DNA of 5,807 nucleotides, taken from positions 1-5,807 of the IMG/VR virus record IMGVR_UViG_2531839454_000022. The stretch is one strand, 5' to 3'. The stretch is from a virus (taxonomy: Duplodnaviria; Heunggongvirae; Uroviricota; Caudoviricetes). The notes beneath the pieces were generated by a model. It made no database searches. It was not told where the DNA came from and saw only the letters and a list, made by a program, of their open reading frames with translations. This document shows positions 1 through 5,807 of the stretch, piece after piece (positions within the stretch are counted from its first letter, which is position 1; every line of letters begins with the position of its first letter). A program made the translations under genes and the position numbers.

Positions 1-132
1 ATTCGCTGCATTCTAGTGGATTCCATTAAGAAAACAATGACATACACTCAAACACATCTTTTTTATCAACAGTGAATTTCAGTTCGGCCAGTTTTTACCA
101 GCTATTATAAAAATAGCATCCATATAAAGTTT

Positions 133-235
133 TTACCCCACAGGTACAGCTGGCCATTCGATAACCGCACTAAGGAAGTGCCAACACGATATCAGCAAGA
201 CCCGATATTTCTTCCATGCCGCCAGCAACGATGTT
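133..235 (-). pseudogene. Relic of the 3' end (~30 codons plus stop) of a second, diverged tfa-like gene
   Basis: DNA similarity to tfa 820..920 (e.g. shared CTGGCCATTC, CCCGATA, CCAGCAACGA blocks). The minus-strand translation ...[13 protein letters not shown]...IEWPVAPVG-stop parallels the tfa C-terminus ...[13 protein letters not shown]...IEWPVAPIG-stop. Similarity begins exactly at the stop codon and is lost upstream of ~235, where AT-rich sequence begins. Confidence 0.5.
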
Positions 236-389
236 AAGGTTAAATTAATTATAAAAAAATATATTATAATTCCATCCTCGCATTAAATTTTAACCTTTAA
301 TCTCCACACGGAACAAGTTGCATAGGTGACTATATTAGGAAAACTTATAACCACCAAAACATTTGCTTTGCAAACAAAAACAGTGACCA

Positions 390-418
390 TTGACTCTAAG
401 AAAATTCCGATCTATTGT
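390..418 (+). promoter_or_regulatory. Candidate sigma70 promoter (TTGACT -35, 17-bp spacer, TATTGT -10) reading rightward into the AT-rich segment
   Basis: TTGACT at 390..395, 17-nt spacer, TATTGT at 413..418. An 8-bp palindrome TTTGCAAA (367..374) lies just upstream. Sequence-pattern prediction only, in AT-rich DNA where such matches occur by chance. Confidence 0.25.
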
Positions 419-452
419 TAGGGTCATCAAAGTTACTTAACAGTATTCCGAA

Positions 453-554
453 ATGAAAATACAAAGCAAGCTAATTGTCTTATTAAACATTATCATTGCA
501 TTTATATTATTTGAGCTTTTAGCTCAAAAATTTGGTTTGAGTACATTATTTTAA
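453..554 (+). CDS. Hypothetical 33-aa small hydrophobic (single predicted transmembrane helix) peptide MKIQSKLIVLLNIIIAFILFELLAQKFGLSTLF
   Basis: ATG at 453, TAA at 552-554; about 35 nt downstream of the candidate promoter and upstream of the + strand terminator at 704..736. No convincing Shine-Dalgarno; below the ORF-track length cutoff. Could equally be a non-coding region. Confidence 0.2.
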   Translation: MKIQSKLIVLLNIIIAFILFELLAQKFGLSTLF

Positions 555-703
555 AGCAAGATAAACAATATCGGGCACTCTAGTTTTTATAATTAACAAT
601 TAAACGTCCATAAAATGTTATTTACTTTTGTTCGCTATTGTCATATCTTAATATAGTGGCTTACGCCACTCTACTTTCATCACATTTTGTACGTTTATGT
701 ACT

Positions 704-736
704 CGCCATGAAGCTCTTTCATGGCGATTTTTTATT
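704..736 (+). terminator. Strong rho-independent terminator on the + strand (opposite to the phage late genes)
   Basis: CGCCATGAA-GCTCT-TTCATGGCG: 9-bp perfect stem (704..712 / 718..726), 5-nt loop, followed by A-TTTTTT-ATT (727..736). On the minus strand the hairpin is not followed by a T-run, so it is unidirectional for + strand transcripts. Confidence 0.55.
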
Positions 737-819
737 CTTAATCCAAGAACATACTCCCTACCTATAGCAAAATCACTTTTTGAACAAAAGAATAACGTAT
801 TTAGGTAATCATTACGAAT

Positions 820-1401
820 TTACCCTATAGGTGCTACTGGCCATTCAATATCCGGTGCAGTTGTTGTATTAACACGGTTCAGCAACACCCGATACTTTTT
901 CCAGGCTTCCAGCAACGAGTTTTCTTCCTCCGTTGCGATTTCCAGATCTACAGCATCCTGAAGTGGCGCAATATGCTCATTCGCTGCCTGCATCAGGCTG
1001 TTTTTTGTTTCTTCCGCCTCCCGGATCCGGAATAGTTTTTCTGCTTCTGCATCTTTCACCCAGGCTGTGCCGTTCCACTTCTGAAACTCCCCTTCCGGGG
1101 ATAACCAGGTGACATTTTCCGGTAATGAGCCGAGTTCAGAAATAAATAACGCGTCGCCGGAAGCCACGTCATAAACCGTTTTACCCCGATGGTCTTCAAC
1201 GAGATGCCACGATGCCTCATCACTGTTGAAAACAGCCACAAAGCCAGCAGGAATATCTGGTGGTGCAATATCGGTACTGTTTGCTGGCAGACCTGTATGA
1301 GGCGGAATATATGCGTCACCTTCACCAATAAATTCATTAGTTCCGACCAGCAGATTATAAATTTTTATGGTCCGTGGTTGTTCACTCATTCTGAATGCCA
1401 T
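820..1401 (-). CDS. tfa: Tail fibre assembly protein (chaperone), intact, 193 aa
   Basis: Translation [83 protein letters not shown]... ...[31 protein letters not shown] is near-identical, from memory, to lambda Tfa over its whole length. ATG at 1401-1399 overlaps the stf stop by one base (translational coupling). Confidence 0.9.
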
Positions 1402-2363
1402 TATGCAAGCCTCACAATATAGTTAAATGCGATGTTTTTGACGGTGTTTTCCGCATTACCAGCAGCGTTAACGGTGATGGTGTGTCCATGTGAACCAATC
1501 GCAACGGAGTGCGTATGAGCACCAATACCGACAGTATGCGCGTGTGCACCTGCAGATGCTGCTGTGCCGGACAGTGAGTGGCTATGATTACCATCTGTAC
1601 TGGTATTAGCTAACCACCCCGTAGACATACCTACTGAGCCTTGTACACCCCAGGTATTTTGACCTGAGCTTGTATAACCATATTGATAAGTATCTTTAAA
1701 AACACTGGGGTTAAATCGACGGCCATCTCTATGGCTGTGATTACCAGCTGCATTCGTGCTGCCACTTAAACTATGAGTATGCGCACCAGTGTTATTCGTG
1801 GATTTAGTGCCGTAATCAAACGATGATGTGGTTTTCGTACCCAAATCCGTACTGGATACGCTGGCGCTGTGGGTGTGCGATTTAATGCCGTCCTGTTCCT
1901 GAGACAATACGGCACGACCACTGGCGGGCTTGCCCTTAATCGTCCAGCCACGCATATCAGGGATCACGCCTGACGGATAAGCGGCTGCAAGTTTCGGGTA
2001 AGCAGATTTGTCAAAAGTCTGCCCCTGCATCAGGGCATAACCAGACGGAACGGTATCTGATGGCCACGGGATTGGTGCGCCGACTGGGTAGCTTTCTGGT
2101 GGAAGATTTTTCGAGGTATAAACTTCTGCCCAGTCTTCCTCAAAACCATAACCGTCTCTTGAAGAACGGTAGAACAGACCACCATTTCTGTAATGCGCCT
2201 TCATCTGCAGGGTCCGGCAACTTCCGACTCCGGTATAGAAGTTAACCAGAATATAGCTGTCGCCAGAGCGGGTGACATTGTAAGCGCCTGATTCGGCATT
2301 CCAGGGAACGCCACCATCCGCATCGGCATATGTATCCGTTGCCCTTCTGGCAAAAGCAGCCAC
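1401..2363 (-). CDS. stf: stf C-terminal fragment (~320 codons, intact frame; analogous to lambda orf-314), receptor-binding His-rich tip
   Basis: Uninterrupted frame ending ...[31 protein letters not shown]-stop. The listed GTG start at 2361-2363 is an ORF-finder artefact; the frame stays open upstream to 2444. The stop codon overlaps the tfa start (TAATG). Confidence 0.75.
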
Positions 2364-2403
2364 ATGCGCGGCGGTTAAAGTAATATCTTTGGAACCATCA
2401 AAC

Positions 2404-2691
2404 TCAACCCAGAAACCGTCTTGGCGTTTGCAGCTTTGTTGCTGTCAATGCGTTACCGTTCAGACTTGCAGACAGCTTGGTTCCAATAACCAGTTCGCCG
2501 GTTGCGTTATCAATAGCAAACGGTCTTAATGTATTCCATCCACCATAAACATCACCTTGATTGGTAAGCAGCAGGTAAGTTTTAGCGCCATCATTACGCC
2601 ATAATGCCCCATACTCCCCACCTATCATTCGAATCTGATTACCACCACGCGCTACAATTTCGTCTGTGGCAAAAAGTTTTTTGCACGACAA
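2404..2691 (-). CDS. stf: stf fragment (tail fibre distal domain piece)
   Basis: Frame piece ...[49 protein letters not shown]..., between the neighbouring stf pieces; frame changes again near 2404-2445. Confidence 0.45.
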
Positions 2692-2705
2692 GTTATCGTT
2701 AACGA

Positions 2706-3134
2706 TTAACGAATGAGACTCATAAAAACCACGCCCACTCTTAAAATCAAGGATAACGTCCGCCGCGATACATTCAGTCGCGGATTTGTTGCCCCAAACT
2801 TATAGGTCGTATCATTAACAACGAGATCAGCACCAGGTGCGGATATTGACAGGCCATCTTCGATAAACGCAAAAACAGGGAAAGCAGCGCCATCAACATA
2901 GAACACAGAGCGCAAATCATCGCCCTTATTACTCATCATTATTGAGTGGATGGCTCGTTCATTGTTTTGATATTGCCAGAACATTCCATAAGCATAACGC
3001 CCCCTGTCAGTCCAGCCACCAGGCATAACAAATCCGTTAAACTCGCAGTTATTCATCGGATCGCCTGCGGTTCGCGTTGCCGTGGTGATAATGACCCTTG
3101 ATGCCAGTTCGCTTACTGAGCCAGCAGAACGCAT
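2706..3134 (-). CDS. stf: stf fragment (tail fibre distal domain piece)
   Basis: Frame piece ...GFVMPGGWTDRGRYAYGMFWQYQNNERAIHSIMMSNKGDDLRSVFYVDGAAFPVFAFIEDGLSISAPGADLVVNDTTYKFG..., contiguous with flanking stf pieces but in a different frame. Confidence 0.45.
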   Translation of the reverse strand: MRSAGSVSELASRVIITTATRTAGDPMNNCEFNGFVMPGGWTDRGRYAYGMFWQYQNNERAIHSIMMSNKGDDLRSVFYVDGAAFPVFAFIEDGLSISAPGADLVVNDTTYKFGATNPRLNVSRRTLSLILRVGVVFMSLIR

Positions 3135-4543
3135 AACAACAACAGGTAATATTTTCCAGATGTTGCACCTGCAGGAGCGTTAACCCGCACATAACGCATA
3201 CCACGCTTATCAGCAAAGTCTGTTTTACTGACCGCGTTAATGTTGTTCAGGAAGCGTCCCTTATCGGGTATATCAGCGCCGTTCTGGTCTTTCTGCAGAC
3301 GTTTCTCTGCATTGTCATAGGCTGATTTTACTGCCTTTGGCGTTGCCGCCAGCGTTTCAGACGTGCTGTTGGTCGCGCTGCTTAGCTGGATTATCCCTTT
3401 CTGTGCTGTCGTTGCATCCTGTGCGGTGTATTTCCCGTTAGCCAGGTCATACGCGGCCTTAACGGCTTTTGGCGTTGCCGCCAGCGTTTCGGACGTACTG
3501 TTGGTCGCACTGCTGAGCTGTACTATCCCCTTTTTCGTCGTGCTCGCATCCTCAAGCGCCACGGCGGATGCAATATCCTCTGCCCGTTTTGCCGCTGTCT
3601 CAGCGCGCGTTGCCGCGGATTCCGCCGTACTTTTGCTCTGTGCTGCCGCCGTCGCACTGCCAGCTGCCTCTGTCGCCTTCGTGGATGCCGTCGTGGCGCT
3701 GCCCTTCGCTGCGGACGCTTGTCTGGTCGCCTCATCTTTTGAAGCAGACGCAGATGATGCCGATGACGCCGCCGAACTGGCGGACGATGCGGCAGCCGTT
3801 TTTGAGGATTCTGCGCTGGTTTCCGACGCTTTCGCGTTCGTTTCGGATGTCTTCGCTGCGGAAGCAGACCTCGCTGCTGCGCTGGCCTGTTCAGTGGCTT
3901 CGCCAGCCTTCGTTGTGGCTGTTGAAGCAGACGATGCGGCGCTTTCTGCCGATTTTCCGGCGGCGGTGGCACTGGCTGAGGCCTGCCCGGCACTTGTTGA
4001 CGCTGCACTGGCAGACGACGCAGCCGCTGTTTTTGAGCCTGCCGCAGCCGAGGCGCTCTGTCCCGCTGCCGTTTCAGAAGACCTGGCGTTGTCTCGACGT
4101 TTTGCCGCCTTCGCGGAATTGCTGCGCCGTTGCCGAGGAAGCGCCTCTGGCGCTGAGTGCGTCGTTTCTGATGATTTGCGCCTCTTTTGAGCGCGCATCC
4201 CGGGCTGAGGTGGCAGCTTCTGACGCTTCGTGGTCGCGGTGGATGCAGAAGTGGCTGCTGATTGTTGTGACGCTGCCGCATTCGTTTCTGACGTTTTCGC
4301 GCAGGCACTGGTAGCTGCCGCGCTTTTTGAGGACTCTGCAGCAGCAGCACTTTTCGATGCTTCATGGCCTTTGTTGATGCCGTTCCTGCGCTGGAAGAGC
4401 TGACTGAGCCGACGAGCGGCCTGTCCGGCTGACGTGCTGGCTGCGCGTGCTGAGCCTGCAGCATCAGTCGCATGGGTTGCCGCCTCACGGCGATGTGCCG
4501 GCATCGCGGCTGACTTCTTCGCGGCTGCCGTGTTCTGTGCCAC
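3113..4543 (-). CDS. stf: stf central fragment (Ala/Ser-rich shaft plus tail-fibre repeat motifs); contains internal compensating frameshifts
   Basis: Translation is mostly Ala/Ser/Thr-rich (ASTSAGQA, AKTSETNA...) but includes Arg/Lys-rich islands (e.g. RQKLPPQPGMRAQKRRKSSETTHSAPEALPRQRRSNSAKAAKRRDNA) that look like out-of-frame readings of the same codon family. Confidence 0.5.
   Translation of the reverse strand: MAQNTAAAKKSAAMPAHRREAATHATDAAGSARAASTSAGQAARRLSQLFQRRNGINKGHEASKSAAAAESSKSAAATSACAKTSETNAAASQQSAATSASTATTKRQKLPPQPGMRAQKRRKSSETTHSAPEALPRQRRSNSAKAAKRRDNARSSETAAGQSASAAAGSKTAAASSASAASTSAGQASASATAAGKSAESAASSASTATTKAGEATEQASAAARSASAAKTSETNAKASETSAESSKTAAASSASSAASSASSASASKDEATRQASAAKGSATTASTKATEAAGSATAAAQSKSTAESAATRAETAAKRAEDIASAVALEDASTTKKGIVQLSSATNSTSETLAATPKAVKAAYDLANGKYTAQDATTAQKGIIQLSSATNSTSETLAATPKAVKSAYDNAEKRLQKDQNGADIPDKGRFLNNINAVSKTDFADKRGMRYVRVNAPAGATSGKYYLLLLCVLLAQ
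3314..3535 (-). repeat. Tandem in-gene repeat in stf: two ~90-bp copies encoding KGI(V/I)QLSSATNSTSETLAATPKAVK(A/S)AYD, spaced ~132 bp apart
   Basis: Copies at about 3446..3535 and 3314..3403 are near-identical at DNA and protein level; the motif is a widespread tail-fibre motif. Confidence 0.7.
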
Positions 4544-4606
4544 GCGGACGCGTTACGCGCCACCTCTTCCACCATCAGTTCAAAACGGCGCAGTGCCTCG
4601 GCGGCA

Positions 4607-4894
4607 TCATCCTCCGTCATGCACCGAGAAATCATTCAGTGTGCCCGGCTTTGAGTCCTCATATACGGTGATAATCCCGGCGTGTGACGGCGGGAATCCC
4701 TCCACCAACAGACTGACGCTGTACTGACCATACTCGACGTCCATTGTGTAACGCCCGGCTTCATCCGGGTTTTCTGAGGCCACTGTGTTCACCACCACCG
4801 TGGTGCTGTTGCGCCTGGCCTTTAGCTGAATGGTGCAGTTTTGTATCGGCTTACCTGCGCCATCTTTCAGTACACCTGAAATCCGTACTGCCAT
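4607..4894 (-). CDS. stf: stf N-terminal fragment (95 codons); frame lost after ...PGTLNDF
   Basis: ATG at 4894-4892 preceded by a G-rich RBS; translation matches the Stf N-terminus, then terminates after a frame change near 4620-4640. Confidence 0.6.
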   Translation of the reverse strand: MAVRISGVLKDGAGKPIQNCTIQLKARRNSTTVVVNTVASENPDEAGRYTMDVEYGQYSVSLLVEGFPPSHAGIITVYEDSKPGTLNDFSVHDGG

Positions 4895-4903
4895 ATTCCC
4901 CCC

Positions 4904-4932
4904 ACAAAAAAGCCCGCCTGAACCGGCGGGCT
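4904..4932 (-). terminator. Rho-independent terminator between lom and stf
   Basis: On the minus strand: GCCCGCC-GGTTCA-GGCGGGC 7-bp GC stem (4931..4912) followed by TTTTTTGTGGGG (4911..4900); lies between lom stop (4959) and stf start (4894). Confidence 0.7.
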
Positions 4933-4958
4933 GTCATAACACTGTGTTACCTGGCTAA

Positions 4959-5524
4959 TCAGAATTTATAACCGACACCAACGATGAAACTGTGTCGCCA
5001 GTCACCCTGCCGGAGCCTTCATAAGCAGTCAAGGCCACGGATTCGGTCGGGTTAAACTGCACGCCAGCTCCCCACGCCAGAGACGTGTTGCTGTGGCGAC
5101 CGTCATCACTTCCGGTCAGCACATCGTGCGTTTTCCCTTGTTGTCAGTTACGCGGAATAATCCCCGGAGAAAGTCGACACACGGCTGTAAGCCACCGCCA
5201 TCGCATACGCGCTGAACCATTCATTCACGCGCACAGACGGCCCCGCCATCACGCTGAACCAGCGTTACGCACGGAATCTCATGCCAGCGGGTATCGCTGT
5301 AAGGTTGATCTTCCTGCATACTGAAGACGTACACCCCAGGTGTCCGTAAACTCATAACGGTATTTCACGTTAATCCCGTTCAGATCATCACTGCCGGGAA
5401 CGTTCGTACGGGCATGAAGATACCCTGCGCTCAGTGTGGCCTGCTGCTCAGACGCCCATGCAGGCGCACCGGATACGGCCAGACAGATGGCTGCGGACAA
5501 AATGGCTGCACAAACTTTACGCAT
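4959..5524 (-). pseudogene. lom: lom-like outer membrane protein (Ail/Lom family) gene, frame-disrupted
   Basis: ATG at 5524-5522 preceded by GAGAGG Shine-Dalgarno. N-terminal 65 aa read as signal peptide (MRKVCAAILSAAICLAVSGAPAWA) plus ...GINVKYRYEFTDTWGV, typical of Lom. Further Lom-like segments (SVMAGPSVRVNEWFSAYAMAVAYSRVSTFSGDY; KTHDVLTGSDDGRHSNTSLAWGAGVQFNPTESVALTAYEGSG; GDWRHSFIVGVGYKF-stop at 4959-4961) lie in different frames. Locus length 566 nt is not a multiple of 3. Confidence 0.7.
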
Positions 5525-5545
5525 AATTACCTCTCGCTTTTCTGC

Positions 5546-5573
5546 AATAAAAAAGGCGCCATTTCTGGCGCCC
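5546..5573 (-). terminator. Rho-independent terminator between J-like gene and lom
   Basis: On the minus strand: GGCGCC-AGAAAT-GGCGCC perfect 6-bp GC stem (5572..5555) followed by TTTTTTATT (5554..5546), about 20 nt after the J-like stop codon. Confidence 0.7.
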
Positions 5574-5591
5574 GTATATGGGTTATAAAAT

Positions 5592-5807
5592 TCAGCTGAT
5601 ACTGATGCCTGCGGTGGCTTTCTTCATCACCACAACCAGCAAATCGCTGATACTTGCTGTGGGATACCAGTTATTTACCAGCCATGCTGACACCGAAAAC
5701 TCCAGTGTCATGTGACCGTGACCGGCAGGCATATCAATAACGCCACTGTAAATCAGCGTATTATCCAGCGCGGTACGGTTATAAATTTCAGCACCGTTTT
5801 TCCGCAC
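5592..5807 (-). CDS. 3' end (last ~71 codons) of a tail-tip / host-specificity protein (lambda J-like); the gene continues beyond the right edge of the window
   Basis: Minus-strand open frame running off the window edge with stop at 5592-5594. It sits directly upstream of lom-stf-tfa, matching the lambdoid order J-lom-stf-tfa. Assignment is by synteny only; I do not recognise a diagnostic motif in these 71 residues. Confidence 0.5.

Follow-up and report, generated by a model that had tools for sequence, protein, structure and literature searches.

A moron-type cassette beside tfa in a lambdoid Escherichia coli prophage probably encodes a diverged YncL-family peptide

Introduction

What is carried by the strongly AT-rich segment beside the tail fiber assembly gene tfa in the IMG/VR record IMGVR_UViG_2531839454_000022 (Caudoviricetes), and does this segment behave as a genetic unit? 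The stretch of DNA analyzed here, called the window below, is 5807 nucleotides (nt) long (positions 1–5807 of the record), and the segment occupies its positions 236–819. The original prediction described the segment as a moron-like insert downstream of tfa with its own promoter, 33-codon hydrophobic open reading frame (ORF), and terminator on the + strand, and offered two kinds of cargo, a tiny membrane peptide or a non-coding RNA of ~300 nt. The results presented below indicate that 236–819 is probably a moron-type accessory transcription unit at the tail-fiber end of a lambdoid (Qin-site) E. coli prophage, and that it encodes a diverged peptide of the YncL family.

Classical lambdoid morons include lom and bor of phage lambda and gp15 of HK97, a superinfection-exclusion membrane protein; they were reportedly treated by Juhala et al. 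in 2000 and by Cumby et al. in 2012. As for YncL, it is a classic orphan small membrane protein of E. coli. Its ability to depolarize the membrane when produced was demonstrated only in 2025 (PMC12542507).

The 33-Codon Gene

The segment 236–819 holds six ORFs of at least 25 amino acids (aa), so the 33-codon ORF is unremarkable by its length alone. Conservation and homology, rather than mere presence, lift the promoter-like site, the ORF, and the terminator above chance. The ORF lies where it had been predicted, at 453–554 on the + strand; it comprises 33 codons and a stop, and its product, MKIQSKLIVLLNIIIAFILFELLAQKFGLSTLF, has one predicted transmembrane helix (residues 7–24). An in-frame stop four codons upstream fixes the ATG at 453 as the start. 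The ORF is unannotated in every record inspected.

Only three lineages of the cassette were found, namely, A (the type of the window), A′ (L082, L083, and L085), and B (NIST0056 and 21 other genomes), the last being ~80% identical in DNA. Within the 102 nt of the ORF, 18 substitutions separate A from B (7, 1, and 10 over the codon positions), and there is no indel. These differences change 13 codons, eight of them synonymously and five conservatively (V>I, I>F, F>L, E>K, and S>Y). The start, stop, and length of the ORF are kept, while indels begin right after the stop codon. The other five frames of 453–554 show 9–14 replacements plus stops in the same comparison. When the A/B substitutions were placed at random, an intact ORF with five or fewer replacements was obtained in 2e-4 of 200,000 trials. 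Four further synonymous changes and a single replacement, A24D, come from lineage A′, and the ORF is intact in 52/52 full-length copies. Judged by this pattern of divergence, ORF 453–554 is a real gene under purifying selection at the protein level.

Similarity of the Peptide to YncL

According to the search against 18,950 NCBIfam models, the peptide matches a single one, NF000537 “stress response membrane protein YncL” (E 1.3e-5, 25.0 bits). Residues 1–28 align without gaps to positions 1–28 of the 30 in the model, residue 1 to residue 1. The peptides of the other two alleles match the same model with E values of 3.7e-5 and 7.5e-5 (23.5 and 22.5 bits). BLASTP comparison with YncL of E. coli K-12 (MNVSSRTVVLINFFAAVGLFTLISMRFGWFI) gave 11/28 identities and 18/28 positives with no gaps (E 2e-7). 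The positions common to both proteins are M1, S5, K/R6, V/I9, L10, N12, A16, L19, F20, L22, K/R26, F27, and G28.

In addition, a control hidden Markov model (HMM) was built from 15 distinct chromosomal YncL sequences, which were obtained from Escherichia, Shigella, Citrobacter, and Intestinirhabdus by means of a degenerate pattern. The cassette peptide scored 21.6 bits on this model; the best of 20,000 full shuffles reached 12.8 bits, and the best of 20,000 segment-wise shuffles, in which the polar–hydrophobic–polar layout was kept, reached 18.2 bits. As a background, 12,942 stop-to-stop segments of all fetched loci were scored, and none exceeded 12 bits apart from true yncL genes (77–84 bits) and the cassette peptides (20–23 bits). 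The similarity to YncL is statistically significant, full-length, and gap-free, and it is not explained by composition. The peptide also has the size and layout of the family (33 aa, compared with ~30 aa, and one predicted transmembrane helix), the 18-residue hydropathy maximum being 2.87 at residues 7–24 of the peptide and 2.31 at residues 8–25 of YncL.

The comparison with YncL (b4598 in E. coli K-12; STM14_1932 within STnc1110 in Salmonella) thus shows common features in length (~31–33 aa), in the single transmembrane helix, which is predicted for the cassette peptide, and in the gap-free alignment from Met1 with a statistically specific HMM match. The two genes differ in several respects. 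Chromosomal yncL lies between patD and ortT, whereas the cassette gene adjoins tfa in prophages and phages. Chromosomal yncL is preceded by the Shine-Dalgarno sequence AAGGTGG, which the cassette gene lacks. The cassette has a long conserved 3′ untranslated region (UTR), its peptide has two extra C-terminal residues and carries E or K at position 21 within the helix, and the two genes exhibit no similarity at the DNA level. Since the score lies below the equivalog cutoff and the patD–yncL–ortT synteny is not seen, the gene is considered a diverged paralogue and not a YncL orthologue. On the evidence of these alignments, the product is a single-helix hydrophobic peptide that is homologous to YncL but clearly diverged from it. 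The profile and BLASTP comparisons therefore supply the family (YncL, NF000537) that the original prediction had been unable to name. Of the two kinds of cargo proposed there, the tiny membrane peptide is favored by the purifying selection and the family membership, and a purely non-coding RNA of ~300 nt is unsupported.

The peptide is rarely found in protein collections. Its exact sequence occurs twice, unnamed, among ~15 billion predicted proteins, and a phmmer search of 1.84 billion representatives detected only the peptide itself and a frameshift variant. When one genome per species was searched with the degenerate family pattern, the 25 genes recovered were all chromosomal yncL genes (Escherichia, Shigella, Citrobacter, and Intestinirhabdus), and none was of the phage type. 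Viral contigs were scanned three times, and these scans yielded the same three lineages only, plus one chromosomal-type yncL and one doubtful ORF. A tblastn search against phages was empty though four phage records there carry the cassette, which is probably due to the low-complexity filter of BLAST. No match to the peptide or the cassette was found in PHROGs and PADLOC, and a literature search retrieved no paper with the peptide sequence and none on a phage-borne YncL.

The chromosomal-type gene from the viral scans is located near the end of the IMG/VR contig L088 (355–447, +). It encodes a divergent YncL, MNVSSRFIIFINVVSAGALLCLLSAKFNWF, whose score of 46 bits exceeds the equivalog cutoff, and probably stems from host DNA next to a prophage in another enterobacterial genus. 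Its presence indicates that the YncL family is broader than Escherichia and Citrobacter. The doubtful ORF, MKKAITLILMNIISALFLFFLIIQNFGFWGHE, at ~3440–3540 (+) of the viral contig L081 has a YncL-like motif with only 14 bits (E 0.03) and may be a very distant YncL relative or a chance match.

Occurrence of the Cassette and Its Behavior as a Unit

The GC content of 236–819 is 29.3%, as compared with 47.4% in tfa and 53.5% in stf, so that the base composition of the segment is unlike that of the neighboring phage genes. The abrupt change of composition noted in the original prediction between the tfa stop codon and the tfa-like sequence ending at ~235 was corroborated, both edges being located by homology. 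On the right, homology to K-12 tfaQ (94.6% identity) ends at position 819, one base past the tfa stop. On the left, homology between copies begins at ~240 or ~278 depending on the context, and the part common to all contexts starts from ~278.

The cassette was detected in 831 of 5426 complete E. coli genomes (~15%), at up to four sites per genome and on chromosomes only, and 823 of these 831 genomes cover at least 80% of it. It is also present in the lambdoid phages mEp332, which can be plated on K-12, ev099, and PhiR70_1; no plasmid match to it was found in the DNA searches. A query with positions 1–1000 of the window, which includes part of tfa, matched 4647 genomes, compared with the 831 that carry the cassette. 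The right neighbor is the tfa stop codon in 52 of 53 fetched copies. The left neighbors, counted on the 49 of these 53 copies that have a scorable left flank, belong to three unrelated classes: a tfa remnant, as in the window (21 copies), sequence leading toward an AraC-family regulator gene, as in the free phages (25 copies), and a third sequence (3 copies).

The Qin prophage of E. coli K-12 occupies the same ydfJ site and has a tfaQ 94.6% identical to tfa of the window, but pinQ-ydfK-ynfT stand where the cassette would be, with the homology breaking at window position 819. Since either the cassette or the pinQ set is found at the same site beside a near-identical tfaQ, the cassette represents alternative cargo on the distal end of tfa. 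This is the comparison of the tfa-distal junction across related prophages that had been suggested with the original prediction, and the segment proved to be present or absent as a unit among close relatives. As judged from these junctions, the segment is a discrete AT-rich unit travelling with tfa.

The degradation of a larger gene, named in advance as a result that would speak against a moron-like unit, was considered and rejected, because DNA searches yield only full-length copies of the cassette itself. The other five ORFs of at least 25 aa in the segment have no Pfam match, and one of them, 283–390 (−), is frameshifted in allele B. Nor was the high A/B identity of 236–345 taken to indicate constraint, since A and B have the same left context there (mosaicism) and the other lineages are only 79–85% identical in this part.

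In K-12 Qin (L087, 2391–3713), the genes at the cassette position are ynfT, a small protein gene discovered by Ribo-seq, ydfK (cold shock), and pinQ. With ynfT and ydfK at this position, the tfa-distal end of Qin-site prophages emerges as a hotspot where small genes related to stress are located. Past the cassette, the free phages and many prophages have ~0.9 kb of unannotated DNA and then the AraC-family regulator gene (L003 1001–1753 and L004 1017–1760 in phages mEp332 and PhiR70_1, respectively; L086 784–1527) and IS2 or IS1 remnants.

Transcription Signals and the 3′ Untranslated Region

The hexamer scan places a promoter-like site on the + strand at 390–418. It consists of TTGACT (390–395), a 17-nt spacer, and TATTGT (413–418) preceded by C, with a predicted start near 425. 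No other + strand promoter-like site lies in the universally shared part 278–452. Of 52 copies, 51 have the same hexamers, 17-nt spacer, and distance of 34 nt from the −10 element to the ATG, type B having TATCGT. The site forms an island of 83% A/B identity, while the spacer upstream of it is 61% identical. The C that precedes the −10 element of the putative cassette promoter (TCTATTGT) may be a sigma-S feature, being often seen at promoters of that type.

According to the terminator scan, an intrinsic terminator is located at 703–736 on the + strand, facing the end of tfa. Its stem, TCGCCATGAAG / TTTCATGGCGA with the loop CTC, is followed by TTTTTTATT. It had been predicted at ~704–736; the stem covers 703–727 and contains 11 pairs, including one G-U. 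Two terminator-like sites were found, and 0.7 were expected. The stem is invariant in all variants except for a change of G-U to A-U at its top, and type B has a weaker T-run (CTTTCTTATTCT). On the − strand, the hairpin is not followed by a T-run. The perfect 6-bp hairpin AGTGGC-TTAC-GCCACT at 655–670 was also verified. Another terminator-like structure, inside the ORF (510–528), was discarded as a by-product of the coding sequence, because its stem is broken in allele B. Since the promoter-like site and the terminator are conserved and lie inside the part shared by all copies, they support the moron-like reading of the segment, with which its behavior as a unit, its composition, and its peptide cargo agree.

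The hairpin 655–670 and the terminator belong to a block at 646–736 (+) that was recognized from allele identity and folding and that seemingly forms a conserved structured 3′UTR. It folds as the hairpin 655–670, a linker, a small hairpin GTAC-N6-GTAC (689–702), and the terminator, with a fold z-score of −6.2. The A/B identity is 91% in this block, 80% in the ORF, and 66% in both flanks, so that the block is the most conserved part of the unit. The only stem changes, C660>T and G713>A, would keep pairing in RNA of the + strand, and not in that of the − strand.

These features are what one would expect if the selected product were mainly an RNA, with 646–736 being a 3′UTR-derived small RNA (sRNA) of the Hfq type and the ORF being secondary, or the transcript having a dual function. 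The layout of hairpin, U-rich linker, and terminator with a U-tail is compatible with this explanation, and yncL of Salmonella was first catalogued as the sRNA STnc1110 (PMC5437024). However, Rfam 15 contained no known sRNA that matched at the gathering threshold. The sub-threshold resemblances to MicC (23.4 bits, threshold 90) and VrrA (23 bits, threshold 50), with E values of 0.05–0.4, represent generic matches of a terminator and U-rich sequence, and the MicC-like seed and 5′ stretch is not conserved in allele B. Moreover, no conserved internal promoter was found, the preceding region 555–645 is the least conserved and contains indels, and the hairpins have no compensatory double changes. 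The local identity could also have been raised by mosaic recombination, of which L083 gives an example with its junction near 727, and the synonymous-biased divergence of the ORF would be left unexplained. An RNA as the main product is therefore considered unlikely, and an RNA-level role of the 3′UTR may be a rival to the peptide or an addition to it.

Possible Function of the Peptide and Alternative Explanations

If 236–819 is a moron-type unit with a YncL-family product, the TTGACT-17-TATTGT site would drive transcription of the yncL-like gene in the lysogen, in the direction opposite to the late operon. The transcript would start near 425, have a leader of ~28 nt lacking a Shine-Dalgarno sequence, and end at the terminator 703–736, which would also shield tfa from convergent transcription. 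The peptide is expected to insert into the inner membrane of the lysogen, where the conserved Asn12 within the predicted helix suggests helix–helix association. By analogy with YncL, it may lower or modulate the membrane potential and so make the lysogen tolerant to stress or able to exclude phages, to the benefit of the prophage. The conserved structured 3′UTR would probably stabilize the short mRNA and may act at the RNA level in some other way as well.

Previously, YncL was found to be induced by heat shock and minimal medium, and its production causes sublethal membrane depolarization, the phage-shock response, reduced protein synthesis, and nucleoid condensation (PMC12542507). In Salmonella, yncL is sigma-S dependent (PMC5437024), and YncL is cleaved by RseP in vivo (PMC10470546). 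According to RIL-seq (RNA interaction by ligation and sequencing) data, the chromosomal yncL mRNA is a target of KilS, an sRNA from the kilR 3′UTR in the Rac prophage (PMC8175672); this targeting provides an independent link between prophages and YncL.

Like classical morons, the cassette adds a gene beside tail genes, has an atypical composition, and brings a promoter-like site and a terminator of its own. It is present in some and absent in other close phages, and its cargo is a (predicted) membrane protein. In contrast to them, its cargo is much smaller (33 aa) and sequence-unrelated, and the cassette is oriented antiparallel to the late operon. By analogy with other membrane-protein morons, the cassette could plausibly bring a benefit by altering stress tolerance or by interfering with incoming phages. 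YohP, TisB, and HokB resemble the predicted cassette product in being short single-helix inner-membrane peptides, and YncL depolarizes the membrane as YohP does (PMC12542507). However, TisB, Hok, and YohP have no sequence relationship to the cassette peptide, and no antitoxin RNA was identified for the cassette.

Several points weigh against the assignment of 236–819 to a moron-type unit with a YncL-like product. The promoter-like site was found at the predicted place but has only 9/12 consensus matches, so that its earlier description as near-consensus was generous for the −10 element. Three promoter-like sites were found, compared with 3.6 ± 1.8 expected in shuffled sequence. No Shine-Dalgarno sequence precedes the ATG at 453, unlike in chromosomal yncL. 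The selection test is based on few substitutions and on only three closely related lineages, and the higher conservation of the 3′UTR than of the ORF hints at constraint on RNA and not only on protein. The peptide reaches 25 bits, while the equivalog cutoff of NF000537 is 35 bits, and its identity to YncL is only 39% over 28 residues. The transfer of function from YncL thus relies on overexpression phenotypes of a 39%-identical paralogue.

An extension of the moron-type reading, which we regard as speculative and rather doubtful, is a phage-borne membrane-potential switch. Here, the mRNA without a Shine-Dalgarno sequence, encoding a depolarizing YncL-like peptide, would be silenced by a helix between its 5′UTR and 3′UTR and released under stress or superinfection, leading to exclusion, abortive infection, or dormancy, with the 3′ end doubling as a trans-acting sRNA. 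If true, it would be a new type-I-toxin-like dual-function moron and the first physiological role for the YncL family.

The cassette could also be a type I toxin-like module, in which such a helix or an antisense RNA keeps the mRNA of a depolarizing peptide silent until stress or infection releases it, with abortive infection, exclusion, or persistence as the outcome; this is quite improbable. The small size and hydrophobicity of the peptide are in line with it, as are the missing Shine-Dalgarno sequence and the long structured 3′UTR, and YncL overproduction depolarizes the membrane and lowers viability (PMC12542507). The RNAalifold program indicates a helix between the start-codon region (~440–459) and ~626–641 on the + strand, with one compensatory A-U/G-C change between alleles. 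However, this helix is no better than in shuffled sequences (47/500 reach it), several of its pairs are broken in allele B, and it was retained as a lead only. Another candidate for long-range RNA pairing, the inverted repeat 316–340/646–670, was rejected because its complementarity decays in allele B with no compensation. A promoter-like site on the − strand (644–615) would suit an antisense RNA, but it lacks its −35 element in allele B and no − strand terminator was found; the cassette contains no conserved − strand promoter–terminator pair from which an antisense or divergent small RNA of a type I toxin–antitoxin system could be made. In addition, PADLOC gave no match, the peptide is without the charged C-terminal tail common in type I toxins, and chromosomal yncL is not known as a toxin–antitoxin locus.

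Finally, it is highly improbable that the segment is a non-functional AT-rich recombination scar or spacer between tail-fiber modules with an incidental ORF, promoter-like site, and hairpins: AT-rich DNA does give promoter-like sites at the chance rate, the segment lies at a recombination junction beside a tfa remnant, and the ORF has escaped annotation, but the protein-level purifying selection, the specific homology to YncL, the ORF intact in all 52 copies with conserved signal geometry, and the retention of the cassette in viable phages (mEp332, ev099, and PhiR70_1) and at several chromosomal sites argue against it.

A diverged YncL paralogue carried as a lambdoid moron would mean that phages have recruited the YncL family; such recruitment suggests a phenotype open to selection, for example, stress tolerance, exclusion, or dormancy. 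The phage alleles supply natural variation that marks S5, N12, A16, L19-F20, and the K/R-F-G motif as constrained, and the cassette offers a way into the function of this orphan family of small proteins. The gene also represents an annotation gap, being carried by ~15% of complete E. coli genomes and absent from every annotation inspected.

The Displaced tfa Remnant

The left flank of the segment contains tfa′ (132–236, −), a 3′ remnant of an older displaced tfa that comprises its last ~34 codons and the stop. It is ~80% identical, in register and including the stop codon, to 819–923. A short ORF in it (133–228) ends in the Tfa-like sequence ...IEWPAVPVG, and the remnant gives a second, partial match of the tfa-internal Rfam family IS009 at 172–247. 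By its sequence, 132–236 is a relic of an older tail-fiber module displaced by an incoming block that included at least tfa and the cassette. Insertion into tfa, or a duplication made by insertion, was ruled out, because the tfa-like left flank is just one of three left contexts. Thus, the description of the segment as an insert downstream of tfa holds as far as a discrete unit beside tfa is concerned, and not in the sense of an insertion into tfa.

An AT-rich stretch (32% GC) also lies beyond the remnant, from L001 7803–8000 (+) to window positions 1–131. At L001 7803–8000 (+), ending one base before window position 1, there is a hypothetical gene of 65 aa (WP_001421370.1) that is antiparallel to the late genes. 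No significant match to its product was found in Pfam, NCBIfam, PHROGs, or PADLOC. From its position, it may be an accessory gene of the older module.

Genomic Setting and Neighboring Phage Genes

Positions 1–1000 of the window are 100% identical to many E. coli chromosomes, for example, that of APEC O2-211, where the counterpart is the end of a lambdoid prophage inserted in ydfJ (Qin site). The order there is ydfJ′, ~0.7 kb, the 65-aa hypothetical gene, the start of the window, tfaQ, the 1132-aa side tail fiber gene, lom, and J. The tfa gene of the window (820–1401, −) encodes a tail fiber assembly protein of 193 aa (Pfam PF02413 Caudo_TAP, E 1e-43); it is annotated as tfaQ in the matching genomes and is 94.6% identical to tfaQ of K-12. 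The stf gene follows tfa from 1401 onward in window numbering.

In the remaining part of the window (1401–5807), stf is split into at least five ORFs and lom is cut to 81 aa, unlike in the closest genomes, which have an intact Stf of 1132 aa and Lom of 199 aa. The alignment of the window with APEC O2-211 has 4 gap openings in 1–3420 and 42 in 3446–5802, and the best full-length match to the window among RefSeq complete genomes is only 98.1%. The broken stf and lom frames come either from a decaying prophage or from a source assembly with many indel errors.

The Rfam family IS009, listed as “gene”, matches with 212 bits at 860–1058 (−), wholly within the tfa coding sequence, and partially at 172–247 (−) in the tfa remnant. 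Apparently, this match stems from the conservation of tfa as a coding sequence and does not represent a separate RNA gene. Between lom and stf, at 4904–4986 (−), there is a GC-rich hairpin with a T-run (CAGCCCGCCGGTTCAGGCGGGCTTTTTTGT) that has a weak Trp_leader score (27 bits, E 0.02). This hairpin looks like an intrinsic terminator after lom, which would be consistent with lom being a moron unit of its own.

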